DNA of 41,117 nt from a virus (Duplodnaviria > Heunggongvirae > Uroviricota > Caudoviricetes): IMG/VR virus record IMGVR_UViG_2690316285_000010; one strand, given 5' to 3'. Below, one piece after another: positions 14,657-37,983 of the stretch. Position 1 is the first letter of the stretch. Each line of letters begins with the position of its first letter. Below the pieces are notes generated by a model, which saw nothing but the letters and a program-made list of their open reading frames with translations, had not been told where the DNA came from and did not search any database. A program made the position numbers and the translations under genes.

Positions 14657-16470
14657 CAGAACTCCATAACCGTGAAACGCTCGTTTTCTCCTTCGCCGCC
14701 AATCGGTTCGTTAATGACAGCAAGCATGGTTGCCCACGCAAGGTCGCCGTGGCTGATCCCCCTCGCGCGGTCCGTTTCGTAAGTGATAAAACCGCCCGGT
14801 GTTTTCACCTTACGCACGGCGTTAAAGGCCGCAACCAGCTCGCGTTCGGCGCGATCGTATTCCCACCGCCCGGCACGCATTATTTGCAGCATTTTCAGTA
14901 CCAGCGACCGTTTTGATGACAGCGTGAAGGTGTAAGGGATGGCGGCGGGAAAAAACCGTTTCACTATCTGATAGACGGCATCCCCGTGCCCGCCCGTCGC
15001 ATCAATGCCGATGTGTTCCACGTTGTAGCGATACGTGAACTCTTCAATAACTCTGGCCTGCTCTTCAAATTCCAGCCCCTGAACGCGTCGCGTCTCCACC
15101 GTTCTGAAACGACCACCAGGAACAGCCGGAGGAACCACCACGGACACAGCGCCGCTGTCGCCGTTACCACTGCTGCCGTTTGCGTCATACCCAATCCATA
15201 CCGGACGATTCCCCATCGGGCGGGGGGCAAAGGGTTTCCAGTCTTTCCAGTCGTCGTATCCGTCAACACCGCAGCCAATCAGGATATTCAGGTTAAATGC
15301 CGATTCCCCTTCGCGGACAAACTCACACATATAGAGATTGCGGAACTCGTCTTCGGTGTTTTCATCACGAATTTCATCAATATCGGTGTGTTTCCAGCCG
15401 TGATTAACCACATCTTCCAGCGTGACAATTTGCCGCCACGTCCGGTCAGGGCAGATAAGCCCGTTATGCAGCGTTTTCCAGTCCACAGAAAAACGCTGGC
15501 GTTTATGCGCGGCCTTTTTCTCGTTCCAGCGGTCGCCGTTCCAGTAGGCGTATGCCTCGTGCGTTTCGGTGGATGGCGTGGAGAAGCAGGTGCGCCGCAG
15601 TCCGCTGAGGGTTGCCATAGCGCCAGCCACCTTGCGCAGTTCAGCAAAGCGACTGACCCAGAAAAATTCATCAAAATAAAAATTGCCCGTGTAAGATTGC
15701 GCCGTCGCAGCAGAAGTGCCGAGAAAATGCATCTCTGCGCCGTTGGAGAGGATGATTTTATCGCCCCCTTTCAGCTCCACATCGACTTCAGCCGCGGCCT
15801 TCTGAATAATGCTTTTAAACTGGAACGCCTGACGACGCGACGCAGACAAAAAAATCTGGTTACGCTGGTAAGGTTGTGCCACATCGTCACGCAGCGCCAT
15901 CAGCAGTGCTTCCTGTGCAAAATACCAGGTCGCCCCAATCTGTCGGGATTTCAGGATCATCCTGTTACGTATCCCGGCTTCNNNNNNNNNNNNNNNNNNN
16001 NCCGGCTTCCCTGCAAAGCGTCAGGGAGTCAAACCAGCCCCGCTGATGCCACTCCAGCCTGCTGATGATTTTTTCCCGCAGTGCGGCAATCTGTTCCGGC
16101 GTGAAATGATTTTTGAGTTTTTTCGCCCGGCCTTTCTTTCCTGTGGCCGTCGCATCCGGCTGGCCATCATGCAGTTTTTTAAGCTGCCGGGNNNNNNNNN
16201 NNNNNNNNNNNNNNNNNGCTGCCGGGTCAGCAGGTCTATTTCCTTAAAGTCACCACCTGTTTTATTCTGTTTTTCAGTAAGCTGGATGAGGCGCGCATCG
16301 ATGGACTGCGTGACACGCTGCACGGGTGGCGTTTCATCCCACTGGTCGCGTTTTTTCCACGCATAAATCGTGTTCGGGTTTATTCCCATCAGACGTGATA
16401 TTTCTGCGGGCGGATAACCCTGCCAGTAAAGTTGCCGCGCACGCTGGCGCACAAAAGCGTCCTGAATCAT
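14656..16470 (-). CDS. P: terminase large subunit (P2 gpP-like), interrupted by two N-runs
   Basis: ORF 14656-15960 matches the nuclease half of P2 P, ORF 16021-16470 the N-terminus. N-runs 15982-16001 and 16192-16217 are flanked by duplicated 9-bp sequences; removing the duplication restores frame (RQ / RQLKKLHDGQPDATAT). Confidence 0.8.
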
Positions 16471-16624
16471 TGCTCCCCCTGAGTAATTACAGGAAGATTA
16501 CCCGCGCGCGAAACCGTTCTCCTTAACCCCCTGTTCTGGCCGTTTTCTTACAACAAAAGCCCTTTGTATCAGCCTGTTACGCTTTGCCATCATGACTGAA
16601 GAACCAGTCAGAGGGGCAAAAACT

Positions 16625-17461
16625 ATGGCTAATGAAAAAAAGACATCCCGCAAAAAGTTTCGCGTGGCTGTCTCCGGATCAACTGTTGATGGCCGTGAAA
16701 TCAGTCCGGTGCATCTGCGTGAAGCCGCCGAGAACTTCAACCCGGATGTTTACGCTGCCCGCGTGAACGTTGAGCACTATCTCTCGCCATGCCCGTCAAG
16801 CGAATTTTCCGCAATGGGCGATGTCACCGCACTGAGTACGGAAGACATTACGGAAGGTCCGCTGGCCGGACGTACTGCGCTGTATGCAGAAATCGAACCG
16901 ACCGAGCGCATGAAGCAGCTTGTCGCGGACGGCAAGAAAATCTATTCCAGTATCGAACTGCACCCGCAGTTCTCCGTTAACGGGCGCGCCTATCTGGTCG
17001 GGCTGGCGATGACCGACACCCCGGCAAGCCTGGGCACTGAGCGCCTGAAATTCACGGCACAGCAACGTCAGGCGGTGATGACGTTCAACAGTATCCAGGG
17101 TGAAGCACCGCTTATCTCCGAAGCCATCGAGTCTGAAATCATCGAAATGGCAGAACAACGCCAGGAAGAAGGCACCCAGTGGTTTAACCGCGTAATGGGG
17201 ATTATTGGTCGTGGCCGCAAAGCGGATGACGCCAGTTTCTCCCGTATTCAGGAAGCGGTGGAAAGCGTCGCAACGTCACAGGCCGACATTATCGACCGTT
17301 TTAATGCGCTGGAAACACGCCATCAGCAGGACAGCCAGAAAATCACTTTACTGACCACGGAGCTGACAGCACTGAAGGAAAAACTGCGCACGCAGGACGG
17401 CGATCCGCAGAACCGGTTCACCGCAACGGGCGCAGCCTCCGACCAGCTGGCTGACTTCTGA
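16625..17461 (+). CDS. O: capsid scaffolding protein (P2 gpO-like)
   Basis: Start at MANEKK aligns with the P2 O N-terminus; divergent from P as in P2. Confidence 0.85.
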   Translation: MANEKKTSRKKFRVAVSGSTVDGREISPVHLREAAENFNPDVYAARVNVEHYLSPCPSSEFSAMGDVTALSTEDITEGPLAGRTALYAEIEPTERMKQLVADGKKIYSSIELHPQFSVNGRAYLVGLAMTDTPASLGTERLKFTAQQRQAVMTFNSIQGEAPLISEAIESEIIEMAEQRQEEGTQWFNRVMGIIGRGRKADDASFSRIQEAVESVATSQADIIDRFNALETRHQQDSQKITLLTTELTALKEKLRTQDGDPQNRFTATGAASDQLADF

Positions 17462-17484
17462 TAAGACAAAGGAGCAAATTTTTT

Positions 17485-18537
17485 ATGAATCTGGTGATGT
17501 CAGATATTACCCGCAACAAGCTGGGTTGCTATATGGCGCAGCAGGCGTCGCTTAACAATATCCCGGTTTCTGCACTGGTATCGCGATTTACCGTGGAACC
17601 TGCGGTGCAGCAACGTTTTGAAAACGCCTCAAAGGATAGCACCGAACTTACAAAAAAAATTAACGTGATCGGCGTGACCGACCAGAAAGGCGAAAAAATC
17701 CTCCTGGACACCACAGGACCGATTGCACGCACAAATACCAGTTATGACGGAACAAAACGCCGTAACCCGAATAACGTGGTTGATCTGAAAAACCGCAAAT
17801 ACCAGTGCGAACAGGTGAACTACGACACGTTTATTTCGTATCCGCAGCTTGATGCCTGGTCGGCACACAGCGATTTTCAGTCCCGCATCAGCGCACAGAT
17901 TGCCCGACAGGTGGCACTTGACCGCATCATGATCGGTTTCAACGGCACATCTCACGCGGATGAGTCCAACTTCAGCACCAACAAGCTGCTTCAGGACGTT
18001 AACGTGGGGTGGCTGGAGCACATCAGAACCAATGCCAGCGAGCGCGTAATGAATGACGTGACGCTGACTTCCCGCAACATGGACAACACCGTGGCGCACG
18101 CGGGTAAATACGCGAACCCTGATGCACTGGTACAGGACGCGCGCTCATCTCTGCTGGATGAATGGCACAAGGAAGCTGACGACCTCGTGGTGATTATGGG
18201 GCGCAACCTGTTTAACTCGCTGCGTCTGCCAGTGCTGAACAGCATCAGCGGCCAGAATCCCAATGCGGAATTACTTGCCGGGCAGCTCATCCTGTCATCG
18301 CGCACCATTGGCGGGCTGGGTGTGTTCCTTGCACCGTTCTTCCCGGATGCAACGATGCTGATCACCTCATTCAACAACCTGTCGATTTACTGGCAGAAAG
18401 GTTCAATGCGTCGTCTGATGAAAGACGAACCGGAATACAACCGCATCGCCACCTACCAGTCCATCAATGACGCTTATGTCGTTGAAGACTATGGCAAGTG
18501 CGCGATGGTCACTGGCCTGAAGTTCGCCGACAGCTAA
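17485..18537 (+). CDS. N: major capsid protein (P2 gpN-like)
   Basis: 350-aa ORF with AAGGAG RBS; similar to P2 N over its length (e.g. FTVEP, YVVEDY). Confidence 0.88.
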   Translation: MNLVMSDITRNKLGCYMAQQASLNNIPVSALVSRFTVEPAVQQRFENASKDSTELTKKINVIGVTDQKGEKILLDTTGPIARTNTSYDGTKRRNPNNVVDLKNRKYQCEQVNYDTFISYPQLDAWSAHSDFQSRISAQIARQVALDRIMIGFNGTSHADESNFSTNKLLQDVNVGWLEHIRTNASERVMNDVTLTSRNMDNTVAHAGKYANPDALVQDARSSLLDEWHKEADDLVVIMGRNLFNSLRLPVLNSISGQNPNAELLAGQLILSSRTIGGLGVFLAPFFPDATMLITSFNNLSIYWQKGSMRRLMKDEPEYNRIATYQSINDAYVVEDYGKCAMVTGLKFADS

Positions 18538-18582
18538 TCAACTCACGGCGGGCATCATGCCCGCCTGTAACGGAGAGAAAAA

Positions 18583-19383
18583 ATGATTACTCCTGCACAG
18601 CAACACTGGCAGAACGTGATGGCACAGCGCGCAGGCCGGGCGAATGAAGGTGTGGACCACGCCGCGCGTACCGCGCATGAAGAGGTGCTGTATCGTCTGC
18701 GTCTGGCACAGGCCCGGCTTAAGGGCGTACAGGCCAGAAGCGCGAAAGCCGACATCAAAAAAGCGTTGTTGCCGGACTTTTCCGGCTGGATTGAGGGAAC
18801 GCTGGAGGCTGACGGCGGGCAACAGGACGAAGTGATTGCCACGCTGATGGTGTGGGCGATTGACTGCGGCGATCTTCCGCTTGCGCTGCGTATTGGTGCG
18901 TATGCGGTCCGTCACAACCTCATCATGCCGGATAACTTTGGCCGTACTGCTGCCACAGTGCTGACCGAAGAAATCTGCAATCCGGTACTGACGCAGGCCG
19001 GGACGGATGCCGACGCGGATTTGTCCGTCTTTATCGAACCACTGGACACACTTTGGGAAATTGTCGCCAACCAGGATATGCCGGACGAAGTGCGCGCCAA
19101 ATTATGCAAGGCGTGCGCCTTTGCCCGCCGTGGCCTGAGCGATGCGGACAGCATGGCCTCATCACTGAAGCTGCTGCGCGAAGCGATGCATCTGAACCAG
19201 AACGCAGGTGTGAAACGCGAGATTGCAACCCTTTCCCGCGCCCTGAAAAAAGCCGATTCCGCAGCCGCACCAGAAGACGCCAGCGCACAGCAGGCGCAGG
19301 ACGAAAGCAGCGAAAGTAAAAAGACAACGCGGAAGCCTGCAACACGAAAAACCACCGCGACGCAGAAGGCGAAGCGCGGTTAA
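18583..19383 (+). CDS. M: terminase small subunit (P2 gpM-like)
   Basis: MITPAQQHW vs P2 MTSPAQRHM; conserved DMPDEVRAKL motif. Confidence 0.85.
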   Translation: MITPAQQHWQNVMAQRAGRANEGVDHAARTAHEEVLYRLRLAQARLKGVQARSAKADIKKALLPDFSGWIEGTLEADGGQQDEVIATLMVWAIDCGDLPLALRIGAYAVRHNLIMPDNFGRTAATVLTEEICNPVLTQAGTDADADLSVFIEPLDTLWEIVANQDMPDEVRAKLCKACAFARRGLSDADSMASSLKLLREAMHLNQNAGVKREIATLSRALKKADSAAAPEDASAQQAQDESSESKKTTRKPATRKTTATQKAKRG

Positions 19384-19484
19384 CGACTGACCCCGTCAGC
19401 GGGCGGCGTGCGCGGTGTTCCGGTTTGGCTCCGTGACCGTTTACACCGCGCACCCACCGCCCGATTTTTTCAGGAGTGAACCCC

Positions 19485-19979
19485 ATGAGTATGGTTGCCA
19501 GAACTGAACCCGGACCCGCAGAGGACGACATCACCGACACCGAAGATGGCGATACCCGTATTTCAGCGGGTGCATTCTGGCCGGATATTGTGCTGCGCGA
19601 GCTGCGTCTGGCGGTACGACTGCCGGGCCGCGTGACCACCTCCCGCCTGCTGCATACCGCCACCGGGGCCGTGGCACACGTTACCCGCGAGCTGGAAGCA
19701 TGGCAGCAGGAACAGCAGGCGGCTGGCCATCAGACGCTGGCCGATGTTCCGGCACCTGTAATTAACGGAGAAAGCGTCAATCTCTGGCACTGGCGCAATG
19801 CTGTTTATACCGCCACACGCGCCCTGATTCTGGAGCGTTACCGCGATGCGGACACAACGGACAAGGGCGACCGCCGGGCGGACGCACTGGATATACAGAC
19901 ATCGGATTTGTGGCGCGATGTGAGCTGGGCCATCTCTGACATTCTGTGCCGCCCGCGAATCTTTGCGGAGTTGTGCTGA
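19485..19979 (+). CDS. L: head completion protein (P2 gpL-like)
   Basis: ADVPA ... GES ... ELWRD pattern as in P2 L; ATG at 19485 with AGGAG 8 nt upstream. Confidence 0.8.
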   Translation: MSMVARTEPGPAEDDITDTEDGDTRISAGAFWPDIVLRELRLAVRLPGRVTTSRLLHTATGAVAHVTRELEAWQQEQQAAGHQTLADVPAPVINGESVNLWHWRNAVYTATRALILERYRDADTTDKGDRRADALDIQTSDLWRDVSWAISDILCRPRIFAELC

Positions 19980-20176
19980 TGAAAGTGAAGACACTGGAAG
20001 GCGACACCGTGGATTCGCTCTGTTTCCGGTACTACGGCACGACGCAGGGCGTCACCGAAAAGGTGCTGGATGCCAACCCCGGACTCTGCCGACAGGTATT
20101 TCTGGAAGCCGGACAGGAGGTGGAAATGCCGGAGCCGGAGAAGAAAAAACAACGAGAGATGATACAGCTATGGTAA
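19979..20176 (+). CDS. X: tail protein X (P2 gpX-like)
   Basis: 65-aa ORF MKVKTLEGDTVDSLCFRYYG... matching P2 X; start overlaps the L stop. Confidence 0.8.
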   Translation: MKVKTLEGDTVDSLCFRYYGTTQGVTEKVLDANPGLCRQVFLEAGQEVEMPEPEKKKQREMIQLW

Positions 20177-20472
20177 CAGGTTTTTTTCAGCGGGTGAGTG
20201 ACTGGATCACCTTCTGGGCATCAGTCACAGCCACCACAATAGGCGTGATGACCATCAGTGAAAAAATCGCCCTTGCCGGGTTGTTACTCGGTTCTCTGTC
20301 TGCATTACATGCCTGGCGACATCGCCGCCTGATGGAAACCGCCATGCAGCGTCGCAATGAACTCATCGCCAGTATCCTGGCGCAGTCAGACGCACGGCCA
20401 CTTCACGACAGTGAGCGTCAGGCTCTGAACATTCTGCGGGATAACGATACACATGATAAAGCTGCCCGTTAA
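20170..20472 (+). CDS. putative holin (two transmembrane helices)
   Basis: 100-aa ORF with two hydrophobic helices and a charged C-terminus, at the holin position between X and the endolysin; start overlaps the X stop. Confidence 0.6.
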   Translation: MVTGFFQRVSDWITFWASVTATTIGVMTISEKIALAGLLLGSLSALHAWRHRRLMETAMQRRNELIASILAQSDARPLHDSERQALNILRDNDTHDKAAR

Positions 20473-24988: not shown

Positions 24989-26421
24989 ATGAGTACCACA
25001 ACACGAAAATTTAAAACCATTATCACCGATACGGGTGCAAAAAAATTAGCGCAGGCAACCGCGCCAGATGGGAAACCTGTCCGCCTGACACATATGGCCG
25101 TGGGTGACGGCGGCGGTACTTTACCCACGCCAGACAGTAAGCAGACCCGTCTTGTGCATGAGGTGTGGCGACATACCGTTAATCGCGTCACCCTGGACGC
25201 AACACATCAGAACCACATTATTGCGGAGCTGGTTATTCCTCCTGAAACGGGCGGATTCTGGATCCGGGAAATTGGTGTGTTTGATGAGCACGGCGATTTG
25301 ATCGCGGTAGGCAATACTGCCGAAAGTTACAAGCCAACCGTTGCCGAAGGATCCGGACGTGCACAAACATTTCGCACCATTCTGACCGTATCCAGCACTG
25401 CCACTGTGGCGCTTACCGTGGATAACACCATGGTGATGGCCACAGTGAATTACGTGGATGACAAACTGAAAGAGCATGAACAGTCACGACGTCACCCGGA
25501 CGCCTCGCTGACCGCAAAAGGCCTTGTCCAGCTCAGCAACGCCACCAACAGCACGTCTGAAACGCTGGCAGCGACACCAAAAGCCGTTAAGGCAGTAATG
25601 GATGAAACGAACAAGAAAGCCCCATTAAACAGCCCGGCACTGACCGGAACGCCAACAACACCAACTGCGCGACAGGGAACGAATAATACCCAAATCGCAA
25701 GCACGGCTTTCGTTATGGCTGCGATTGCCGCACTTGTAGACTCTTCGCCTGATGCACTGAACACACTGAACGAGCTGGCGGCGGCGCTGGGCAACGACCC
25801 GAATTTTGCGACCACCATGACTAACGCGCTTGCGGGTAAGCAACCGAAAGATGCCACNTCTCAGAGCAAAGTTGCTGCTGAATCCGCGGCAACGCGCGCC
25901 GAGACAGCAGCAAAACGGGCAGAGGATATTGCATCCGCCGTGGCGCTTGAGGATGCGAGCACGACGAAAAAGGGGATAGTACAGCTCAGCAGTGCGACCA
26001 ACAGCACTTCCGAGTCACTGGCGGCAACGCCAAAAGCGGTTAAGGCGGTAATGGGTGAAACGAACAAGAAAGCGCCCTTAAATAGTCCTGCACTGACCGG
26101 AACGCCAACAACACCAACTGCGCGACAGGGAACGAATAATACCCAAATCGCAAGCACGGCTTTCGTTATGGCTGCGATTGCCGCCCTTGTAGATTCGTCA
26201 CCTGATGCACTGAACACGCTGAACGAGCTGGCTGCGGCGCTGGGCAACGACCCGAATTTTGCGACCACCATGACTAACGCGCTTGCGGGTAAGCAACCGA
26301 AAGATGCCACTCTGACGGCGCTGGCGGGGCTTGCTACTGCGGCAGACAGGTTTCCGTATTTTACGGGGAATGATGTCGCCAGCCTGGCAACCCTGACAAA
26401 AGTCGGGCGGGATATTCTTGC
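24989..26421 (+). CDS. H: tail fibre protein, constant N-terminal part (P2 gpH-like); 3' end lost at an N-run and IS4
   Basis: N-terminus MSTTTRKFKTIITDTGAKKLA... and the QLSSATNSTSE..LAATPKAVK segments match P2 H. Reading frame ends at ...VGRDIL, then N-run 26422-26430 and the IS4 end. Confidence 0.8.
25531..26307 (+). repeat. tandem duplication of about 327 bp within the tail fibre gene
   Basis: Unit 1 about 25531-25857 and unit 2 about 25981-26307, roughly 95% identical, encoding LS.ATNSTSE.LAATPKAVKAVM.ETNKKAPLNSPALTG...AGKQPKDA twice. A single N (25858) sits at the end of unit 1. Confidence 0.7.
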
Positions 26422-26426
26422 NNNNN

Positions 26427-27852
26427 NNNNGCCAGTCAGTTAAGCAACTGACTGGCTCTTTTTCGGGGCTGTGGGGTATTTCCAGGGCCTCTCCTTTACC
26501 ACTCTCGGGAAGGCCCTTTCCCTTCTCGTCGGTAATTTCACAAGTTGTCCCATACTTGCAAGATCGCGCATCAGCTCCGGTATACGTCCCGGTGAAGCGC
26601 CCTGCAATGTCATCAGCATTCTCATCACCATTCCGCATGATTCTGAGAAACTCAGTTGATTCGGCCAGTAACCTTTCAGATGTTCCGCCATTTTAATCAT
26701 CTGATATCTCACCAGATTATAAGCCAGTAAGACACCCCACAGCTCTTGCTCCACAAGCTCCGGCTTTTTACTTCTCAGCGTCAGCCTGCTCAGTTGCATC
26801 GTCTGTTTTATCTCCCTGTATCCCAGTTCGATTTCCCAGCGATGACTGTACAGATCCGCCATTTCTCCTCCGGGGAAGCGCATGGCGTCCGTCATCGACG
26901 TCAGCAGATGGCAGACTTTTCCTTTGCGCGTCACGGTCAGCAGGCGGGCTGTCACTTCATTTCCCAGTCCCGGCCACTTTTTTCGTGCCTGCGGGCTGGT
27001 TTTCAGCTTCACCAGATGATCGCCTTTACCCAGTTTTCTGAGCTCTTCATATTGCGCTCCCTTTCTGAGAGGTATCATCCAGTGGCGGTGTTCTCCCGCC
27101 AGGCTCCAGGCATTTAACAGTCCCAGTGAGTAATAACCTTTATCCATTAACGTCAGAGTGTTATCGCCGGTTTGTTCTATAAGTTGCTCAGCAAGCTCAT
27201 TTTCGCTGTTCTTCATCGTGCCGAAGGCTGCAGCCGTCAGCAGATGGCTGGTCAGTTCCATCTGGCAGACCATTTTGACCTGCGGGTAGAGCGCCGGGTT
27301 CCCGGCATGTGTCTGGCGGGGGAAGGCTGCATCGTTCTCTGGTGTATCCGGTGTGCGCCAGAACACACCATCGATGGCCAGCAGGGTCAGGCCGCACCAG
27401 TGCGGATGCGGCGTGGCGTTATGCCAGAGCTGCGCTGTTTTCGTGAACACGCGGCGGACAGCCTCACTTCCCAGGCGCTGGCGGGCCTGAATAACGGCAC
27501 TGGGGGCAACGAAGGGGCGATTGCCCGGCAGCATGATGTCCAGGCGATTCACAATCTGGTGAAGAGGTTCTTTACGCTCAAGCGCCATGCCAACAATACA
27601 CCAGACCATCATTTCGAGGGGAAGACGGCGCTTGCGTAGCGTTACAGTACCTGATTCGGCAAGGCAACGAGAGATGAGTTCGGGGTCGAGGTAATCCCCC
27701 AGAGAAGTCAGTGGGTTACGCAGAGAATCGTAACGGGATACCAGATCAAGAGCCTGTCCAATGTGCATAAAAAAATCCGGAAACAAGTGAGCGTTTCCGG
27801 ATTCTTACACAGCCACTGGATCGGTCAACTGATCCTTAACTGATCGGCATTA
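26427..27852 (-). mobile_element. IS4 insertion sequence
   Basis: Encodes a protein matching E. coli IS4 transposase; visible terminus at 27835-27852 reads TAATGCCGATCAGTTAAG (reverse complement), the IS4 inverted repeat as I remember it. The other end runs into N-run 26422-26430, so the start coordinate is approximate. Confidence 0.85.
26440..27768 (-). CDS. insG: IS4 transposase (DDE)
   Basis: 442-aa protein from [10 protein letters not shown]... matches IS4 InsG from memory; ORF-track start at 27786 is an upstream extension. Confidence 0.9.
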
Positions 27853-27978
27853 CTACTACAAGCTGAGTGTTAACGATCGCCCGTTGTGGGAGATTGACCT
27901 GCTGAACTTCATTTACCGGAAGGACGGCAGGGACATTGTGCCCGATCGCATCCGTTCCGCGCTCGGGCTTGGCTGATA
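27853..27978 (+). pseudogene. 3' remnant of tail tube gene (P2 gpFII-like), truncated by IS4
   Basis: Open frame ...NDRPLWEIDLLNFIYRKDGRDIVPDRIRSALGLG* directly abutting the IS4 end; resembles the C-terminus of P2 FII as I remember it (...EIDTINMIEKVNGVDRLEQHRRNIGL); sits just upstream of E as FII does in P2. Confidence 0.55.
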
Positions 27979-28030
27979 AGTAATATGCAGGCGGCGCAGT
28001 GCGTCGCCTCTGACTGAAAGGAGTTTCCTG

Positions 28031-28396
28031 ATGAAAGAGACGAAAAACATCGATACCGAAAACACGGTCGTTGCTGACACTGTGAAAGAAACCAGTGAGC
28101 GTGGCGTAAAACTTACCCAACCAATTGAGCGAGGCGGCGAAAAAATCACGTATGTGGAGATCACCGGGGCTATTGAGCAGGCTGGATCTCTGCGAGATTT
28201 GTCGCTGTCTGATGTGCTGAATTTGAAAGCGGAATCCATGTTTACGCTGCTGTCACGCGTGACATCACCGCGACTGGATGAAGTGACGATCAAAAAAATG
28301 GCATCCCGTGACTTTATTCAGTTATGTGTGGTTGCCGTAAATTTTTTGAGCGGTGCGGACTCTGGCGAGAAGAACGAACAGGCGACGGAAGCCTGA
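28031..28396 (+). CDS. E: tail assembly chaperone (P2 gpE-like)
   Basis: AAGGAG RBS; 121 aa; followed by overlapping -1 frame extension. Confidence 0.8.
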   Translation: MKETKNIDTENTVVADTVKETSERGVKLTQPIERGGEKITYVEITGAIEQAGSLRDLSLSDVLNLKAESMFTLLSRVTSPRLDEVTIKKMASRDFIQLCVVAVNFLSGADSGEKNEQATEA

Positions 28397-28560
28397 TCAC
28401 GGTTGTGTGCTTTGAGCACATAGAAGACTTTGTGGCGGATATTGCCGCCATTTTTAACTGGTCGCCCGCCGAAATCTTCATGATGACGCCCGGCGAAGTG
28501 GTTAGCTGGCGTGAGCGGGCGGCACTTCGCAGCGGGAATGCAGACAATGAAGACTCTTGA
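28031..28560 (+). CDS. tail assembly chaperone E+E' (-1 programmed frameshift product)
   Basis: Slippery heptamer T_TTT_TTG at 28342-28348 in the E frame; the -1 frame is open from there to 28560, as for P2 E/E'. Confidence 0.65.
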
Positions 28561-31135
28561 TATCCGGGTCGCTTTCAGCGCCGTTGACAGGCTGACCCGG
28601 CCTGCCGAAAACGCCCGCCGCCTGATGGGGCAGTTTGGTGACTCCATCCAGCGAACGCAGGGGGCGATCAAAAATCTCGAGCGTCAGGCGCGTTCATTTG
28701 AGCGCGCCCGTGACGCTGTCAGTAAAGCGGATGCGGGCATCGTGAAAGCACGACGCCAGCTTAACGCCCTTAATCAGTTACAACGCACGGGTACAGTGCT
28801 CAGCGAAAAACAACAAAAGCTGATGCAGCAGTTAAGCACCCGGCTTGAACGCCTGAATGAATCGCGCACACGGGAAATTCAGAAAATGCGGGAACTTGGC
28901 GGAGAGCTGAAACGCCACGGCATTTCCCTGACAGGCAGCGATAACACCATCCAGCAGGCCATCAGACGCACCGGACAATACAACAACCAGCTTGAACGCG
29001 AACGGCGGGCGCTTGCGCGTGTAACGCAGGCGCGTGAGCGGTATTCACGCGCGCAGGAAACAGCGGGAAAACTGAAAACAGGTGGTGCGCTGGCAACAGG
29101 TGCGGCGGCAGCGGGCGGCTATGCTGCCGGGCGTTTTTTGCAGCCCGCTATCGGGTTCGGGAAAGAGATGTCCCGTGTTCAGGCACTGACGCGAATCGAT
29201 AAAAACAGCCCGCAGTTTAAGGCGCTGCGTGAGCAGGCGTTAAAACTTGGCTCTGAAACGCAGTTCACCGCAGGCGATGCCGCCAGTGGACAGGCATTTC
29301 TTGCAATGGCTGGTTTCACACCGCAGGCCATTCAGGCTGCGCTTCCCGGCGTGCTGAGCATGGCAACGGCTGGCGGTATGGACCTCGGCGAGACGGCGGA
29401 TATTGGTTCCAATATCCTGACGCAGTTCGGCCTCTCTGCTGACCAGATGGACCGGGTCGGTGACACACTTACCGCAGCGTTTACCCGTACCAACACTGAC
29501 CTTCGCGCACTGGGCGAAACCATGAAATATGCAGGTCCGGTGGCGGGTAAGCTGGGAATATCGCTGGAGCAGGCCGCAGCGATGGCGGGCGTGCTGGCGA
29601 AGATGGGTATCAGGGGGAGTGATGCAGGTACAGCGTTGCGTAAAAGCCTGGCCAATCTGTCATCACCGCCAAAGGCAGCGGCAGAAGCACTGAAAGAGCT
29701 GGGGGTGTCAGTTGCTGACGCCAAAGGCAAAATGCGCCCGATGGAGAATGTGCTGGCCGATCTCTATAAAGCCACCCGCAAATACGGGGAGGTTGACCGG
29801 GTATCGTTCTTTAAGGACATTGCCGGAGAAGAGGCTTTCACATCATTTATGGGCCTCGTTGATGCGGCAGGTGACGGCTTCTTAGCCAAACTGAGAAAAG
29901 AACTTGAAGGCGCGCGCGGTGAGGCAGAACGCACGGCAAAGGTTATGGCCAATAACCTTGATGGCAACCTGAAATCACTCGGCAGTGCATGGGAAGGTCT
30001 GCGTATTCGCATCAGTGATCTGGTTGACGGTCCGCTGCGTTCTGTCACGCAGTGGCTCACGCGGGTTGTCTCAAAGGTGACGGCGCTGGCGCAGGCCCAC
30101 CCGGCACTGACGCGCCAGTTACTGATAGCGGGAGGCGCACTGCTGGCGACAACAGCAACGGTTGGTTCGTTGTCTCTGGTTATTGGGGTGCTTCACGGGA
30201 AGCTGGCTACGTTGCGTCTCGGTTTTTCTCTCCTGACCGAATCAATGAATGTTGTCAGGGTTCTGCCTGCATTATGGGGAATGGTGACGGGTTCCGTTTC
30301 TTTACTTGGTGGCGCTATCGGGGCGCTGTTCAGTCCGGTTAGTCTTATCGTGGCTGCGCTTGCCGGAGCTGCCGTTCTTATCTGGAAATACTGGGATCCC
30401 ATCAGGGCATTTTTTGCCGGGGTGTTCAGCGGGATTATGGAAAGGCTGACCCCGTTGCGCGAAACCTTTGAACGGTTTGGCCCTGTTTTTGATGTCGTGC
30501 GCGATGGGATTATTCAGGTCTTTAACTGGTTTAAATCGCTGCTGTCACCGATGGAGTCCAGCAAGGAAACGCTGGATAAATGTGCCAGTGCTGGCGAGAT
30601 ATTCGGTAACGTTCTTGGCGGTGCGTTACAACTTGTTCTGACACCTGCAAAAATGCTACTGGATACGCTGGCGTGGATACTTGAAAAACTTGGCGTCCTT
30701 CCGGATGAAGCGGAAAGGGCGCGCAAGAAAATCGAAGACGCACAGCGTGCGGCCATTCTTCAGGACAAGGTTGCCTTGCTTCAGGGGGACCTGGCGAAAA
30801 TCAATCCGCCGAAGCCTGTGGAAAATGGCAATGGCACCGGAGGTGATAAACCCAAAGACAACAAACCGCTCACAGACAGCAATACCGGGACGCTACGCAG
30901 ACTCAGCAAAATTGCTGATAACACAGGTAAGCTGGTTGATGAGACGAAAAAACGCATTGGCCCCGGCGATATTGTCTTTAAGAACCTGCCCCGCGCACTT
31001 GCTGTTCGTGGGGAGTGGCAGGAGCGGAAGATTGCGCAGGTCAGTAAGCCTGCCCCCGCAATTAATATCACACCCGTGGTCCCGGCTCCGCTGCCTCCGG
31101 CGCTGGTCCCTGTTGTTGCGGCCAGCTCCCGCCCG
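28511..31135 (+). CDS. T: tail tape measure protein (P2 gpT-like), 3' end hidden in N-run
   Basis: Long alpha-helical Ala/Gly-rich protein with hydrophobic central segments; 875 codons before N-run 31136-31361. Start codon uncertain (GTG 28511 or ATG 28538/28547). Confidence 0.8.
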
Positions 31136-31363
31136 NNNNNNNNNNNNNNNNNNNNNNNNNNNNNNNNNNNNNNNNNNNNNNNNNNNNNNNNNNNNNNNNN
31201 NNNNNNNNNNNNNNNNNNNNNNNNNNNNNNNNNNNNNNNNNNNNNNNNNNNNNNNNNNNNNNNNNNNNNNNNNNNNNNNNNNNNNNNNNNNNNNNNNNNN
31301 NNNNNNNNNNNNNNNNNNNNNNNNNNNNNNNNNNNNNNNNNNNNNNNNNNNNNNNNNNNNNTC

Positions 31364-31858
31364 ATGGCCATGATGATGATCTACGGCATGTTTGTTTTTG
31401 AGCTGCGTACATTGCCGCATCAGCAGTTACAGCAAAACAAAAGCTGGCGGCATGTGAAAAATGAACGCGTTAACCGTTCGGCAAGCTGGCAGTATATCGG
31501 TGCAGGTGATGAGCGCATCGTTCTTTCTGGTGTGCTTTATCCTGAAATTACAGGTGGCGAAGTGTCGCTGTCGCTGCTGACCACGCAGGCGTATACAGGA
31601 CGACCCTGGCCTCTGATTGATGGCGTCGGGCAGATTTACGGCATGTATGTCCTGACCGAAACGAATACGACCCGCTCCGAGTTTGATCGCTACGGTAAGG
31701 CGAAAAAGATAGAATTTTCACTGACTCTTGAACGCTGTGATGAGGATTTGCGGGAGCGCCTGCAATCCTCATCGTTCAGCGATATGCTGTCCGGCTTCAA
31801 AGATAAGGTAACATCATCCCTTAACAGCGCGGCCAGTTCAGTTAAAGGGTTGTTCTGA
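31364..31858 (+). CDS. U: tail protein (P2 gpU-like)
   Basis: MAMMMIYGMFVFELRTLPHQQLQQNKSWRH... vs P2 U MMMVLGLFVFMLQTVPYQELQYQRNWRH...; begins immediately after the N-run. The ORF track fuses T, the gap and U into one 1115-aa ORF. Confidence 0.8.
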   Translation: MAMMMIYGMFVFELRTLPHQQLQQNKSWRHVKNERVNRSASWQYIGAGDERIVLSGVLYPEITGGEVSLSLLTTQAYTGRPWPLIDGVGQIYGMYVLTETNTTRSEFDRYGKAKKIEFSLTLERCDEDLRERLQSSSFSDMLSGFKDKVTSSLNSAASSVKGLF

Positions 31859-31871
31859 TTTAACACAAAAA

Positions 31872-31904
31872 CCGCTAATGGTCAGATTAGCGGTTATTTT
31901 GTTT
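31872..31904. terminator. bidirectional rho-independent terminator between U and the invertase gene
   Basis: CCGCTAAT-ggtcag-ATTAGCGG hairpin with T-tracts on both sides (TTATTTTGTTT on plus, TTTTTGTGTTA on minus). Confidence 0.6.
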
Positions 31905-32481
31905 CCTGACTCTTCTCTATTGTTCCGATTGATTCTCCTGCGGGGTGGTAACGATAAATCGTCGATATACCAATGCCGTAAATTATTGCCAGTTGTTTTC
32001 TGTCGTGCCCGTTTTTGATCAGCCTTGCTATTTGCTCATGCTGTTCTTTTGTCAGCTTCGGTCGACGTCCGCCTGTGCGCCCCCGTGCGCGTGCTGCCGC
32101 CAGTCCGGCCAGTGTACGTTCAACAATTAATTCACGTTCCATTTCAGCCAGGGCACCCATCACGTGGAAGAAAAAACGCCCCATTGGAGAAGATGTATCT
32201 ATGCTGTCGGTCAGACTGCGAAAATTAATTCCTCGCTCCCGTAGTTCCCCGACGAGAGAAATCAGATGTTTCATGCTTCGCCCGAGGCGATCCAGTTTCC
32301 AGACAACCAGCGTGTCACCTTTTTGAAGGCGCTTTAAAGCGCGTTTTAATCCCGGTCGGTCTGTCTTTGTCCCGCTTAATTTATCTTCAAATATTTGTTC
32401 ACATCCTGCACAAACAAGAGCGTTTCGTTGCAGGTCTGTATTCTGGTCATTTGTTGATACCCTTACATAGCCAATCAGCAC
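31894..32481 (-). CDS. pin: serine DNA invertase (Pin/Gin/Cin/Min family)
   Basis: [36 protein letters not shown]... is close to e14 Pin through the catalytic domain (Ser in VRVSTNDQ), C-terminal HTH diverged. Start placed at GTG 32479-32481; ORF track uses TTG at 32499. Confidence 0.88.
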   Translation of the reverse strand: MLIGYVRVSTNDQNTDLQRNALVCAGCEQIFEDKLSGTKTDRPGLKRALKRLQKGDTLVVWKLDRLGRSMKHLISLVGELRERGINFRSLTDSIDTSSPMGRFFFHVMGALAEMERELIVERTLAGLAAARARGRTGGRRPKLTKEQHEQIARLIKNGHDRKQLAIIYGIGISTIYRYHPAGESIGTIEKSQETK

Positions 32482-32535
32482 GCTGAATCTCCCGTCCAAA
32501 AGCGCAAATCATGCCATGCAGGCCGGAAACGGCCA

Positions 32536-32561
32536 TTATCTAAAACCTCGGTTTACAGGAA
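32536..32561. other. invertase crossover site (gix/pix-like), site 1
   Basis: TTATCTAAAACC-TC-GGTTTACAGGAA: two 12-bp inverted half-sites around a 2-bp core, near-identical to the Mu gix site as I remember it; 55 bp from the invertase start. Confidence 0.8.
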
Positions 32562-32670
32562 ACGGTAAACAAGGCTGGTAACGCCGTGCAAAAAAATGGC
32601 GATACGTTGTCCGGTGGACTTACTTTTGAAAACGACTCAATCCTTGCCTGGATTCGAAANNNNNNNNNNN

Positions 32671-33260
32671 TCTTCTATTGTACGACGGTGTTCGTCAAAA
32701 GCTAATTGTCGCCAGGGACTTTCGAATGAGTATTTGCTGAGCCAGCGTCGGTGTGCAGGGCCCCAATCTGCTCGCCCGACATAATGGACCCCATGAACCA
32801 GAAGAAACGATTTCAGACGTTGCCTTGCATGCCGTAAATCATCGCGGGCAGATGCCCATGCCCGGGCCAAATCCCGGAATGCCTCATCTTCAATGCCGGG
32901 TACGTAGACAGCAGAAAGATCTCCTGCACGCAGTGAACGCACAAGTCTGATGGCATCACGGCGATCGGTTTTAACCCGCTCCCCCGGTTTTTTCGGGATA
33001 AGTGAGGGGGCGCAGACCATGCAGTCAAAACCGGATTTCACCAGCCGACGATAAAGTCCATAACCACAGGGCCCCGCTTCATAAACGATACTGACCTGCG
33101 ATGACTTTGACCTGAGACGTTTACAAAGATTCTGAATATCAGTAGGTGATGTGCCAATTTTACCCATCAGTTCAACAGGTTCTGAATTGATAGCATAAGC
33201 GACAGTAATCGATTCTTTGTGAACATCTAACCCGACGTACAATGTGTTATTGTTGTTCAT
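32671..33260 (-). mobile_element. 5' part of an IS110-family (DEDD) transposase gene, cut off by N-run 32660-32670
   Basis: N-terminus MNNNNTLYVGLDVHKESITVAYA... is typical of IS110-family transposases (and related Piv-type invertases). Only about 196 codons precede the gap. Confidence 0.6.
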
Positions 33261-33386
33261 GCTGGCCTCCGTGGTGGAAATACCGGGGTGTAGCAACAGC
33301 TCACCCATGCGGCTCTGACAACGATGTTAACCCGCGTTAAATATCCCACGTTGGCCAGCATCTGTCTCACGGAAAGTCATACTGCC

Positions 33387-33656
33387 TTACATTGTGTCTG
33401 GTTCTTCCGGCCACTCAATATCAGGTGCAGTTGATGTATCAACACGGTTCAGCAACACCCGATACTTCTTCCAGGCTTCCAGCAACGAGTTTTCTTCCTC
33501 CGTTGCGATCTCCAGATCTACAGCATCCTGAAGTGGCGCAATATGCTCACTGAATTCCTGGATGTAGAACTGTGTGGTGACGGTCTTCCAGCCATTCGGC
33601 TCCTGCTGTATCGAAGCATACCAGGCTATTTCAATATCGCTATGCTGCGGCAGCAT
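33387..33656 (-). CDS. short tail-fibre-assembly-like protein (C-terminal domain only)
   Basis: 89-aa ORF ending ...[28 protein letters not shown], the conserved C-terminus of Tfa proteins; N-terminal half unlike the other Tfa copies here. Confidence 0.5.
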
Positions 33657-33712
33657 TTAACCCCTTGTAATTCATCGCCATAATTGATTTAATTCACAAA
33701 TAAAACTATAAT

Positions 33713-34381
33713 ATGGTGAAATTAATGAAAAAAAACACAGATGATGGGGCTAAAATTTACACACCACTTACCCTAAAGCTTTATGACTGGTGGGTTTTGG
33801 GAGTATCAAATCGGCTTGCATGGGGATGTCCTACAAAGGAACACCTTCTTCCACACTTTCTGGAACATTTAGGTAACAACCATCTGGATATTGGTGTTGG
33901 AACTGGGTTTTACCTTACTCACGTACCTGAGAGTAGTCTGATATCTTTAATGGATTTGAACGAAGCTAGCCTGAACGCGGCATCTACAAGGGCTGGGGAA
34001 TCAAAAATTAAACATAAAATTAGCCATGATGTTTTTGAACCTTATCCCGCGGCGTTACATGGTCAATTTGATTCCATTTCCATGTTTTACCTTCTTCACT
34101 GCCTGCCTGGAAATATATCTACAAAAAGCTGTGTAATACGCAATGCGGCGCAGGCCTTAACTGATGATGGAACTCTATACGGAGCCACAATTCTTGGCGA
34201 TGGAGTTGTGCACAATAGCTTCGGTCAAAAACTGATGCGCATTTACAATCAGAAAGGCATCTTTTCAAACACAAAAGATTCCGAAGAAGGCTTAACACAT
34301 ATACTCTCAGAGCATTTCGAGAATGTTAAAACCAAGGTTCAAGGTACTGTAGTAATGTTTTCCGCTTCAGGGAAAAAATAG
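33713..34381 (+). CDS. class I SAM-dependent methyltransferase (substrate unknown)
   Basis: 222-aa ORF with motif I LDIGVGTGF; AT-rich coding sequence; followed by a hairpin CCGCAGCACGT...ACGTGCTGCGG at 34390-34422. Confidence 0.6.
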   Translation: MVKLMKKNTDDGAKIYTPLTLKLYDWWVLGVSNRLAWGCPTKEHLLPHFLEHLGNNHLDIGVGTGFYLTHVPESSLISLMDLNEASLNAASTRAGESKIKHKISHDVFEPYPAALHGQFDSISMFYLLHCLPGNISTKSCVIRNAAQALTDDGTLYGATILGDGVVHNSFGQKLMRIYNQKGIFSNTKDSEEGLTHILSEHFENVKTKVQGTVVMFSASGKK

Positions 34382-34579
34382 CATCCAACCGCAGCACGTT
34401 CTTGCTTAAGACGTGCTGCGGCATAATCCCAATGATTACTCCCTGACAGGGTTCGTAGGCCACTCAATATCAGGTGCAGTTGATGTATCAACACGGTTCA
34501 GCAACACCCGATACTTTTTCTAGGCTTCCACCACCAGCACGACAAGATGCCGCATACAGTGACCCAGTCAGTCCAGTTT

Positions 34580-34780
34580 TCAGACAACCAGTGCGTCACC
34601 TTTTTGAAGGCGCTTTAAAGCACGTTTTAATCCAGGTCGGCCTGTCCTTGTTCCGCTTAATTTATCTTCAAATATTTGTTCATATCCTGCACAAACAAGA
34701 GCGTTTCGTTGCAGGTCTGTATTCTGGTCATTTGTTGATACCCTTACATAGCCAATCAGCACGCTGAATCTCCCGTCCAA
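34580..34780 (-). pseudogene. diverged 5' fragment of a second invertase gene (about 66 codons)
   Basis: Translates to [19 protein letters not shown]...LQKGDALVV*; differs from the intact pin at several nucleotides (C->Y, K->R, D->G, T->A), so it is not an assembly duplicate. Confidence 0.6.
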
Positions 34781-34816
34781 AAGCGCAAATCATGCCATGC
34801 AGGCCAGAAACCGCCA

Positions 34817-34832
34817 TTATCTAAAACCTCGG
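34817..34832. other. crossover site 2 (left half visible; rest in N-run)
   Basis: TTATCTAAAACCTCGG then N-run 34833-34923; sequence after the gap resumes CGGTTTACGAGAAC..., a variant right half. Confidence 0.5.
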
Positions 34833-34923
34833 NNNNNNNNNNNNNNNNNNNNNNNNNNNNNNNNNNNNNNNNNNNNNNNNNNNNNNNNNNNNNNNNNNNN
34901 NNNNNNNNNNNNNNNNNNNNNNN

Positions 34924-35897
34924 CGGTTTACGAGAACTCGGCACAAGCGGGGAGAAAATACCGTTACTCAGTACAGCGAATACCTGGACTAATCGACAAA
35001 CATTCAGCGGTGGCCTTTCTGGTGAACTATCCGGCAATGCTTCTACAGCTNNNNNNNNNNNNNNNNNNNNNNNNNNNNNNNNNNNNNNNNNNNNNNNNNN
35101 NNNNNNNNNNNNNNNNNNNNNNNNNNNNNNNNNNNNNNNNNNNNNNNNNNNNNNNNNNNNNNNNNNNNNNNNNNNNNNNNNNNNGTGCGTTTGCCTTAGG
35201 GAAAACAGGAAGCACCGTTGCGAATGATAAAGCAGTTGGATGGAACTGGAGTAGCGGAGCCTATAACGCAACTATTAGTGGTGCATCAACGTTAATTATT
35301 CATTTTTATAATTAATCCGAAACTGAGCTGCAGGACAACTTCCTTCTCCCATATAAAAATGGCGGTATTTTTTATCGTTCAGCCCGTGATGGTTATGGTT
35401 TTGAAGCCGACTGGTCCGAATTTTACACCACCAGAAAACCTTCAGCAGGAGATGTTGGTGCACTGCCGTTATCTGGTGGTCAACTGAATGGTGCACTGGG
35501 TATCGGAACATCCAGTGCTCTTGGCGGTAATTCGATTGTATTGGGTGATAATGACACGGGCTTTAAACAAAAAGGCGATGGTAATCTGGATGTTTATGCT
35601 AATAACGTCCATGTTATGCGCTTTGTCTCCGGAAGCATTCAAAGTAATAAAACCATAAATATTACGGGACGTGTTAATCCCTCGGATTACGGTAACTTTG
35701 ATTCCCGCTATGTGAGAGATGTCAGACTTGGCACACGAGTTGTTTAGACCATGAAGAAAGGCGTGATGTATGAAAAATCAGGCCATGTAATCACGGGGCT
35801 TGGTATTATCGGTGAAGTCGATGGTGATGATCCGGCAGTATTCAGACCAATACAAAAGTTAATTAACGGAACATGGTATAACGTATCGCAGGTATAA
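34924..35897 (+). pseudogene. tail fibre variable C-terminal domain (P2 H-like type), disrupted
   Basis: Encodes ...TWTNRQTFSGGLSGELSGNASTA, (gap 35051-35184), ...[21 protein letters not shown]..., ...[18 protein letters not shown]...[18 protein letters not shown]. Interrupted by a 41-bp inversion (35311-35351) and an in-frame TAG at 35745. Confidence 0.6.
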
Positions 35898-35899
35898 TC

Positions 35900-36131
35900 A
35901 TGCAGCATTTAAAAAACATTGTCGCAGGTAATCCAAAAACCGTTGAACAATACCAGCTAACAAAGAATTTTGATGTTATCTGGTTATGGTCCGAAGATGG
36001 AAAAAATTGGCATGAGGAATTAAAAAACTTTCAGGAGGATACAATAAAACTGGCTTACACAGTTGAGGGAATAATTATTGCTATAGACAAGGATGTATCA
36101 GCAATTAATCCAGAAGGTTTAAGTGTCGTTG
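35900..36131 (+). CDS. tail fibre assembly protein, N-terminal part (P2 gpG-like), cut off by N-run
   Basis: [37 protein letters not shown]... matches the Tfa/P2 G N-terminus; ends at N-run 36132-36142. Confidence 0.65.
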
Positions 36132-36142
36132 NNNNNNNNNNN

Positions 36143-36450
36143 CCGGTCGGTCTGTCTTTGTCCCGCTTAATTTATCTTCAAATATTTGTTCACATCCTGC
36201 ACAAACAAGAGCGTTTCGTTGCAGGTCTGTATTCTGGTCATTTGTTGATACCCTTACATAGCCAATCAGCACGCTGAATCTCCCGTCCAAAAGCGCAAAT
36301 CATGCCATGCAGGCCGGAAACGGCCATTATCTAAAACCTCGGTTTACAGGAAACGGTAAACAAGGCTGGTAACGCCGTGCAAAAAAATGGCGATACGTTG
36401 TCCGGTGGACTTACTTTTGAAAACGACTCAATCCTTGCCTGGATTCGAAA
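36143..36450. repeat. exact 308-bp copy of 32352-32659 (invertase 5' end plus crossover site 3 at 36327-36352)
   Basis: Base-for-base identical to 32352-32659 by eye; each copy has an N-run on one side. Confidence 0.8.
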
Positions 36451-37363
36451 TACTGACTGGGCAAAGATTGGGTTTAAAAATAATTCGGATGCAGACACCG
36501 ATTCCTACATGTGGTTTGAAACAGGCAACAACGGCAATGAATATTTCAAATGGAGACACCGCATCATTGGCACCCGGCCTAAAGACCTGATGAATCTTAA
36601 ATGGAATGCTTTGTCTGTTCTTGTTGAAGCCCTTTTCAGCAGTGAAGTGAAAATATCGACAGTCAATGCACTGAGGATATTTAATTCATCTTTTGGTGCC
36701 ATTTTTCGTCGTTCTGAAGAATGCCTGCATATCATCCCTACACGAGAGAATGAAGGGGAAAATGGTAATATAGGGCCACTACGCCCCTTTACGCTTAATC
36801 TCAGAACTGGCCGGATAAGCATGGGGCATGGTCTTGATGTTACAGGGGATATATTTGCAAACCGTTTTGCAATTAACAGTAGTACCGGCATGTGGATTCA
36901 TATGCGTGACCAGAATGTTATTTTGGGACGTAATGCGGTATCCACTGATGGTGCTCAGGCTTTGCTCCGTCAGGACCATGCCGACCGCAAATTTATGATT
37001 GGCGGTCTGGGAAATAAGCAATTTGGCATCTACATGATTAATAACTCAAGGACAGCCAATGGCACCGATGGTCAGGCGTACATGGATAATAACGGGAACT
37101 GGCTTTGCGGCTCGCAAGTTATTCCCGGCAACTATGGCAATTTTGATTCCAGATATGTGAAAGATGTTCGACTTGGTTCACAGCAATATTATGGAGTGAA
37201 CAACTGGCAAACATGGAATTTTCAGTGCCCGTCAGGCTATGTACTGACGGGGATTAACGTACAGGATACCGGAAAAAACTCTGCCGATAATATTGCAGGC
37301 GTTCATTACAGGCCAGTGCAAAAGTATATAAATGGCACTTGGTATAATGTGGCGAGTATTTAA
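36377..37363 (+). CDS. tail fibre variable C-terminal domain, cassette A
   Basis: Frame is open from within the crossover site ([19 protein letters not shown]...) to ...[17 protein letters not shown], the conserved tail-fibre tip end; would be expressed only when fused to the constant part. Confidence 0.7.
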
Positions 37364-37364
37364 T

Positions 37365-37892
37365 ATGATGCACTTAAAGAACATAAAAGCAGGTAATGCT
37401 AAAACAGTGGAGCAGTATGAGTTAACAAAGAAGCACGGAGTCATCTGGCTTTACTCTGAGGACGGAAAAAACTGGTATGAGGAAGTGAAGAACTTTCAGC
37501 CAGACACAATAAAGATTGTTTACGATGCAAATAATATTATTGTCGCCATCACCAAAGATGCCTCCACGCTTAACCCTGAAGGTTATAGCGTCGTTGAGGT
37601 TCCTGATATTACAGCTAATCGTCGTGCTGATGATTCCGGTAAGTGGATGTTTAAGGACGGAGCTGTGGTTAAACGGATTTATACGGCTGACGAACAGCAA
37701 CAACAGGCCGAATCACAAAAGGCCGCATTGCTTTCCGAAGCTGAATCAGTCATCCAGCCGCTGGAACGCGCTGTCAGGCTGAATATGGCAACAGACGAGG
37801 AACGCACACGACTGGAAGCATGGGAACGCTACAGTGTTCTGGTCAGCCGTGTGGATACGGCAAAGCCAGAATGGCCACAAAAGCCTGAGTAA
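37365..37892 (+). CDS. tail fibre assembly protein, cassette A
   Basis: [11 protein letters not shown]... to ...[26 protein letters not shown]; start 2 nt after the variable-domain stop. Confidence 0.8.
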
Positions 37893-37912
37893 AAATTAAG
37901 GCCCGATANNNN

Positions 37913-37938
37913 NNNNNNNNNACCTCGGTTTACAGGAA
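37913..37938. other. crossover site 4 (left 9 bp inside N-run 37909-37921)
   Basis: Visible part ACCTCGGTTTACAGGAA identical to sites 1/3, followed by the same [15 protein letters not shown] junction frame. Confidence 0.6.
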
Positions 37939-37983
37939 ACGGTAAACAAGGCTGGTAACGCCGTTCAGCGTTCCGGCGATAAA

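Follow-up and report, generated by a model that had tools for sequence, protein, structure and literature searches.

A probable single IS4 insertion in the tail-tube gene of a P88-like prophage, presented by a draft scaffold as a tail-gene deletion

Introduction

Has the prophage on this scaffold lost a set of tail genes, or has the assembly put them elsewhere? The stretch under study, called the window below, is the whole of scaffold CXDI01000026.1 of assembly GCA_001250495.1 (41,117 nucleotides; IMG/VR record IMGVR_UViG_2690316285_000010, Caudoviricetes; scaffold locus L028 is the reverse complement of window positions 4656-25960), and in it a copy of the insertion sequence IS4 stands between the tail-fibre gene H and the last codons of the tail-tube gene FII. 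In phage P2, the tail cluster runs H-G-Z/fun-FI-FII-E-E'-T-U-D. Holding the window against this order, an earlier interpretation made from the letters and their open reading frames (the sequence-only reading) concluded that the 3' end of the fibre gene, the tail assembly gene, the sheath gene and most of the tube gene were absent, about 4 kb in all, and that the Z/fun cargo slot had gone with them; it proposed either a prophage made defective by an IS4-associated deletion or the loss, during scaffolding, of a contig between two IS4 copies.

To place the flanking genes, we used locus L010 as the reference prophage for colinearity, took the reference FII protein from L011, and compared gene order with that of phage P88 and of eight 100%-related reference loci. 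Domains were assigned by Pfam matches, and complete-genome searches covered 5426 complete E. coli genomes, a collection from which Shigella is absent. The locus is very probably the product of a single IS4 insertion into FII of a P88-like prophage, with no deletion, and the missing tail genes an artefact of assembly.

Results

The two halves of FII carry reciprocal IS4 junctions

At the right-hand edge of the element, FII sequence starts at 27853 directly at the IS4 end with no N between them, and the junction at 27852/27853 reads ...GGCATTA|CTACTACAAGCTGAGTG. The FII remnant (27853-27976, plus strand) consists of the last 40 codons and the stop; in frame it encodes YYKLSVNDRPLWEIDLLNFIYRKDGRDIVPDRIRSALGLG followed by the stop codon, which is identical to residues 131-170, the C-terminus, of the 170-aa FII of L011 (a PF04985 protein), and the window DNA from 27853 onward is 100% identical to L010. 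The abutment of the IS4 left end at 27852 on the last ~40 codons of FII, upstream of E and without a gap, had been recognized by the sequence-only reading and is confirmed by this identity. No ATG, GTG or TTG lies between the upstream stop codon, which is internal to IS4, and the remnant, and the first available start would give only ~30 aa.

A simple insertion predicts an FII 5' part that terminates in ...YYKL and runs on into the TAA of the IS4 end, for a product of 134 aa. Exactly this protein is found in the public protein collection, including on CXDI01000107.1 (locus L018), which belongs to GCA_001250495.1 as does the window scaffold. The contig holds uvrY, uvrC, pgsA, three tRNAs, hok, ogr, a 500-aa PIN-domain gene, D, the 394-aa sheath protein FI and FII codons 1-134; its FI matches sheath domains, and the 134-aa FII product matches positions 1-132 of the 165 of PF04985 (Phage_tube). 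Over the segment that spans the PIN gene through the 5' part of FII (5638-10402), the contig is 100% identical to L010, as is the window from the 3' part of FII to U. Its terminus reads ...CTACTACAAGCTG|TAATGCCAGTCAG..., or at longer reach ...AACACCTACTACAAGCTG|TAATGCCAGTCAGTTAAGCAACTGACTGGC, and is the reciprocal IS4 junction with the same 13-bp target-site duplication: the right copy of CTACTACAAGCTG occupies window positions 27853-27865 (plus strand) and the left copy stands at the end of the contig, whereas intact FII has the sequence once. The final 26 nt of the contig equal window positions 26431-26456 exactly. Since two contigs of the assembly hold the reciprocal junctions of one IS4 with its 13-bp duplication, the event was a simple insertion and not a deletion.

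An IS4-associated deletion of ~4 kb, by which a P2-ordered prophage would have lost the 3' end of H, G, Z/fun, FI and most of FII, has in its favour only the look of the scaffold from 26421 to 27853, and we regard it as almost certainly wrong. The flanking genes are present in the assembly, FI and the 5' part of FII among them; the target duplication, which an adjacent deletion would have destroyed, is intact on both sides; the 3' end of H and the tail assembly genes that were thought missing are inside the window itself, at 39437-41117 and 36323-37908; and the gene order is not P2-like. Searching the assembly for FI, the tube 5' sequence and the other IS4 junction, as the sequence-only reading had itself suggested, recovered both the genes and the junction on CXDI01000107.1, which leaves the sheath and FII codons 1-134 accounted for. 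The estimate of ~4 kb rests on the P2 template, and nothing has been shown to be missing from the genome. As to the suggestion of a contig lost between two IS4 copies, there is indeed a scaffolding problem, but no lost contig need be assumed and one IS4 copy suffices. We also considered whether the strain might carry another, identical P88-like prophage whose FII is intact, which is unlikely: both junction contigs cross the insertion point unbranched.

The insertion is predicted to leave FII in two pieces, a truncated product of 134 aa and a remnant of 40 codons that cannot be translated. At the IS4 right end, a terminator-like hairpin with an 11-bp stem followed by a T-run (26431-26466, plus strand) faces transcription arriving from FI and the 5' part of FII, and the plus strand showed no outward promoter-like site. 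Because this hairpin meets the incoming late transcript, with no such promoter in evidence, expression of E, E', T and U is probably low. With FII split, the prophage probably cannot build tails and is still defective, as one alternative of the sequence-only reading supposed; the deletion that it gave as the cause is contradicted by the reciprocal junction.

Downstream of the remnant lies the rest of the tail operon. E (28031-28396, plus strand) is an exact gpE protein match; the E' frameshift region lies between E and T on the plus strand and is colinear with L010; the tape-measure gene T begins at about 28547, also on the plus strand, and its 3' end lies beneath a run of 226 N (31136-31361); and U (31370-31858, plus strand) has a GpU Pfam match. 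This part of the operon (28031-31858) is colinear with and 100% identical to L010 9823-13105 and 13329-14626.

The element is a full-length IS4

The insertion sequence occupies 26427-27852 on the minus strand and is 1426 bp long. Its first 4 nt, TAAT (26427-26430), lie under a run of N, as the sequence-only reading had noted of the right end, and are read as TAAT on CXDI01000107.1. Across the 1422 readable bases there are 3 substitutions relative to a 1426-bp reference copy, and thousands of complete E. coli genomes contain IS4 copies that match 26431-27852 at 99.4-99.9% identity. Of the imperfect terminal inverted repeats beginning TAATGCC, the left one, TAATGCCGATCAGTTAAGG, is complete (27834-27852, minus strand) and the right one, GCCAGTCAGTTAAGC, is readable from its fifth base at 26431. 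The transposase open reading frame (26440-27786, minus strand) is intact, differs by one substitution from the reference protein, and matches PF13006 (Nterm_IS4, E 3e-33) and PF01609 (DDE_Tnp_1, E 8e-32). Length, inverted repeats, transposase domains and the 13-bp duplication are shared with the known E. coli IS4 (IS4 family, IS4 subgroup; transposase InsG), from which this copy shows no substantive difference, four of its terminal bases being masked by N. IS4 duplicates 11-13 bp of its target. By every feature tested, the element is IS4.

The prophage has the gene order of P88

The closest phage relatives of the window are P88-like Peduoviridae, with 91-98% DNA identity in blocks that cover most of 5.9-32.6 kb. 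In Escherichia phage P88 (Xuanwuvirus, Peduoviridae), the baseplate genes are followed by H, a tail-fibre assembly gene, an inverted alternative pair of assembly and fibre genes and a DNA invertase; the genes after these, U, T, E', E, FII and FI, are encoded on the opposite strand, with D next in the order. This module order equals that of the window once the block 26431-41117 is flipped. By DNA similarity and module order, then, the prophage is P88-like. A 100%-identical prophage lies between ihfA and btuC in complete E. coli and Shigella genomes (for example CP026836.1), and exact-protein matches were found in 917 blocks of the collection for gpA and in 855 for gpE, complete chromosomes included; in every one of these chromosomes, FI-FII-E-E'-T-U is antiparallel to H and the prophage lies between btuC and ihfA. 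Relative to P88 and the reference prophage, the present one differs in its IS4-interrupted FII and in a right arm joined to pgsA-tRNA instead of ihfA. Genes resembling ParM/StbA and Plasmid_stab_B partition genes lie downstream of gpA (10822-12097), as in P88.

Phage P2 has homologues of H, the G-like assembly gene, FI, FII, E, T, U and D, but the P2 order is the wrong template for this lineage. Neither P88 nor any of the eight reference loci has FI-FII-E-T-U co-oriented with and directly downstream of H-G; FI to U lie on the strand opposite H, from which they are separated by the invertase and an invertible tail-fibre segment. Nor does the lineage have a Z/fun cargo slot here: its cargo (moron) position is between ogr and D, where P2 has Z/fun after G. 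In this prophage and its reference that position is taken by the 500-aa PIN_4-domain gene (L018 5822-7324; L010 5255-6757), and in the relative L022 by a 1039-aa gene with no Pfam match.

When the window is read from 27853 to 41117 and then from 26421 back to 23226, the path is monotonic on L010 9823-20366, and 20 bp are absent, at the turn only. Window positions 27853-32659 correspond to L010 9823-14626 (forward, in two pieces flanking the run of 226 N), 36143-37908 to 14319-16084 (forward, 99.9%) and 39813-41117 to 16299-17603 (forward), after which 26421-25982 corresponds to 17624-18063 and 25861-23226 to 17732-20366, both in reverse. The scaffold end at 41117 and the edge of the N-run at 26421, far apart as the scaffold is written, are therefore neighbours in the reference, 20 bp from each other.

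Gene H, complete once rejoined, is divided on the scaffold. Its constant 5' part (24989-25857, plus strand) is 100% identical to the reference H (L010 18291-17735) up to 25857, and the constant part ends at 26421, at the N-run as had been seen earlier, 20 bp before the crossover site of the invertase. Its variable 3' part (40147-41117, minus strand) runs to the end of the scaffold, inside a gix-like site whose outer half, TTATCGAATACC, equals the half on the side of the H constant part. Joining 24989-25857, 26311-26421, the 20 bases taken from the reference and 40147-41117 in reverse complement rebuilds an H of 656 aa with 0 differences from the reference H. Its assembly gene, the equivalent of G (39437-40000, minus strand), has a Caudo_TAP Pfam match and is colinear with L010.

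The invertible segment is accompanied by a serine DNA invertase of the Gin/Pin/Cin type (31894-32481, minus strand; Resolvase and HTH_7 domains) that matches the P88 invertase, with a gix-like crossover site beside it (32536-32561, plus strand). In one arm of the segment (36143-37908, plus strand), a repeat of the invertase 5' end and a gix-like site are accompanied by an alternative variable part of H (36377-37363, plus strand) and an alternative tail-fibre assembly gene (37332-37892, plus strand). Further gix-like sites lie at about 36327-36352, at 37913-37938 (partly N), at 34819-34832 (cut by N) and at 41092-41117. With the Mu G segment, the P1 C segment and the e14 P region, this segment shares the serine invertase, the 26-bp gix-like inverted sites and a choice of two C-termini for the fibre, both of them paired with a Caudo_TAP gene; inversion is predicted, and the segment bears on the present question only as a repeat at which the assembly broke. 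In L011, L012 and L014 to L017 (about 14578-18694), loci of complete genomes, the invertible segment contains one or two IS3-family elements, recognizable by open reading frames of 100 and 272 aa or a fused one of 385 aa, which suggests that in other strains tail-fibre switching is often disrupted in this same prophage too.

The scaffold joins contigs at repeats

The window contains 13 runs of N, and several of its joins are demonstrably wrong. Between 25858 and 26421 (plus strand), a single-N join is followed by a 563-bp contig that derives from a paralogous lambdoid side-tail-fibre (stf) gene: 25859-26421 is 98.8% identical to stf of a lambdoid prophage of E. coli NCTC86, and its last part (26234-26421) is identical to the prophage H. 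Its 26 differences from the reference H (25 mismatches in the L010 alignment) all fall within 25981-26233. This join gives the appearance of a 90%-identical tandem duplication inside H (25516-26310, in which 25516-25815 is resembled by sequence after the single N at 25858). We rejected a real repeat inside H; two paralogous contigs, one from the P88-like H and one from the lambdoid stf, have been laid end to end. Immediately after 26421 a single-nucleotide polymorphism separates H from stf, and both then enter the gix repeat, which makes a branch point in the assembly graph.

Foreign contigs are interleaved at 32660-36142, comprising a fragment of an IS110-family transposase (32637-33308), a class I methyltransferase (33713-34381), a second invertase 5' fragment (34572-34832, 95.7%), and lambdoid stf and tfa pieces. 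Positions 33409-34832 are 98.6% identical to the NCTC86 lambdoid locus, and the stf/tfa pieces are 96-99% identical to the lambdoid prophage near ompW/yciE of that strain. Contigs from another locus appear to be interleaved at 37909-39812 as well. The invertase 5' end is present in three copies in the scaffold, and N-runs, as well as the scaffold end itself, are located at gix-like sites. Two further gaps are spurious: the flanks of the N-runs at 15982-16001 and 16192-16217 overlap by 8-9 bp in the reference, and these false gaps split the 583-aa large terminase into open reading frames of 434 and 149 aa. Such overlaps mean that the lengths of N-runs are unreliable; their variability would be typical of paired-end scaffolding followed by gap filling.

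The link between H and IS4 is probably one of these joins

The sole link between H and IS4 is a 9-N scaffold gap (26422-26430), the last 4 positions of which cover the IS4 bases TAAT. We propose that one IS4 copy, in an ordinary cut-and-paste event, entered FII at codon 134/135 and duplicated the 13 bp CTACTACAAGCTG, and that the adjacency of H and IS4 would be a 9-N join of two repeat edges, namely a tail-fibre region held in common with a lambdoid prophage and a multi-copy IS4. On this most economical reading, the block 26431-41117 would have been attached the wrong way round, at the IS4 end when it should have been at the gix end, and was most likely mis-joined. In the genome, 26421 most likely continues via the 20 bp into the reverse complement of 41117, in the order ...GGGATATTCTTGC-GAAATCGACCGTTGCCGCCG-TTATCGAATACCTCGG, and the IS4 right end would continue into CXDI01000107.1 (FII5'-CTACTACAAGCTG-TAATGCCAGTCAG), with GGGATATTCTTGCGAAATCGACCGTTGCCGCCGTTATCGAATACC as the expected junction sequence.

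Several points weigh against this proposal. The junction under the N-run is unreadable and could hide a real, if improbable, second IS4 beside H or stf. A paired-end scaffolder normally needs some read-pair support before it links a tail-fibre contig to IS4. The right arm of the prophage on CXDI01000107.1 adjoins uvrY-uvrC-pgsA-tRNA Gly/Cys/Leu (L018 1-5637) and not ihfA-pheT, as in all reference genomes, which implies some rearrangement or chimerism at the right end of the prophage. Finally, we infer both the loss of tail function and the polarity on E to U.

Recombination between two prophages, and with it a chromosomal rearrangement of ~200 kb, could lie behind the patch of the right arm at hok; a chimeric contig is the alternative. 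The 130 bp beside hok share ~90% identity with the reference and are similar to the end of another P2-like prophage, one located at the pgsA site (L020).

Were the H-IS4 junction real, a second IS4 would have inserted in H, 20 bp before the crossover site, and recombination between inverted IS4 copies (or a replicative-type intramolecular event) would have inverted the 14.7-kb block that extends from the 3' part of FII as far as the H terminus, giving the genomic order H-IS4-FII3'-E-T-U-invertase-...-gix-20 bp-IS4-FII5'-FI. The topology of the scaffold as written and the junction on CXDI01000107.1 are both formally compatible with such an inversion, and the scaffolder did link these ends. We nevertheless think it very unlikely: a further IS4 would have had to land in precisely those 20 bp at which a break of the assembly graph is unavoidable in any case, first at the polymorphism and then at the gix repeat; the upstream arm of the supposed site in H (GTCGGGCGGGAT) is without the A-run that precedes five other IS4 targets (below); the junction lies wholly under N; and the scaffold has several other demonstrable repeat errors. 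Moreover, no adjacency of IS4 to either H or stf occurs in the 5426 complete E. coli genomes.

The junction could also be real at another locus, with an IS4 beside the lambdoid stf, the scaffolder having passed from stf via a collapsed IS4 into the 3' part of FII while the P88-like H stayed intact. The contig that touches the N-run is indeed derived from stf, and read-pair support for a link between tail fibre and IS4 would find its explanation here. Such a junction, however, was absent from the same genomes, the site matches IS4 targets poorly (again its upstream arm has no A-run), and here too the insertion would have to coincide with the 20 bp of the unavoidable graph break. We consider this course of events highly improbable.

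Whole-region and synthetic junction queries in both orientations found neither an IS4-FII nor an H-IS4 junction in the complete E. coli genomes, a weak negative given that Shigella was not in the collection. A mis-join at repeat edges, with one IS4 copy in FII, remains the reading that we prefer.

The insertion site resembles other IS4 targets and may be hit in other prophages too

The flanks of the insertion in FII (cattaaaaacac, the 13 bp, then agtgttaac) have arms that resemble those of the IS4 copies at raiA/bamD, mug, focB and btuB. In five sites (L003, L034, L035, L036 and FII), an A-run ends 2-4 nt before a duplication of 12-13 bp, and G(T)GTT/CCGTTT follows it; the four other IS4 copies examined have target duplications of 12-13 bp. 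This comparison draws on the five sites read here. The sharing of flanking arms among IS4 sites also explains why BLAST alignments ran 13-29 nt past the IS4 ends. A shared flank as the source of 13 extra matching bases past the IS4 end in other genomes was considered and rejected, the match reflecting a partial similarity of target duplications.

In public assemblies, 48 blocks contain exactly this 134-aa form of truncated FII, with L018 to L027 among the contig ends. These contigs stop at FII nt 402-404, and they come from at least four contexts (pgsA, fabB/flk, raiA/bamD and ihfA/pheT), including prophages that are only 97% identical to that of the window. Two of the junctions are readable, one running into the right end of IS4 (L018) and one into its left end (L019), and hence represent opposite orientations. 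Among the 5426 complete E. coli genomes searched, IS4 was not seen in a P2-family tube gene.

Discussion

The biology uncovered here is already known: it is a routine knockout of a tail-tube gene by IS4. The apparent 4-kb deletion was produced by a gap-joined draft scaffold read against the wrong order template, P2 in place of P88. Scoring the completeness of prophages, or IS-mediated deletions, from scaffolds of this kind is misleading, and what settles the question of a deletion is the reciprocal IS junction on other contigs of the same assembly.

Of minor interest in its own right is that the same nucleotide position of FII has seemingly been struck by IS4 repeatedly and in both orientations. 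On balance, and by a modest degree of preference, we favour the view that codon 134/135 of FII may be a recurrent natural target of IS4, at which different P2-like prophages of E. coli and Shigella would have been disarmed repeatedly and independently.

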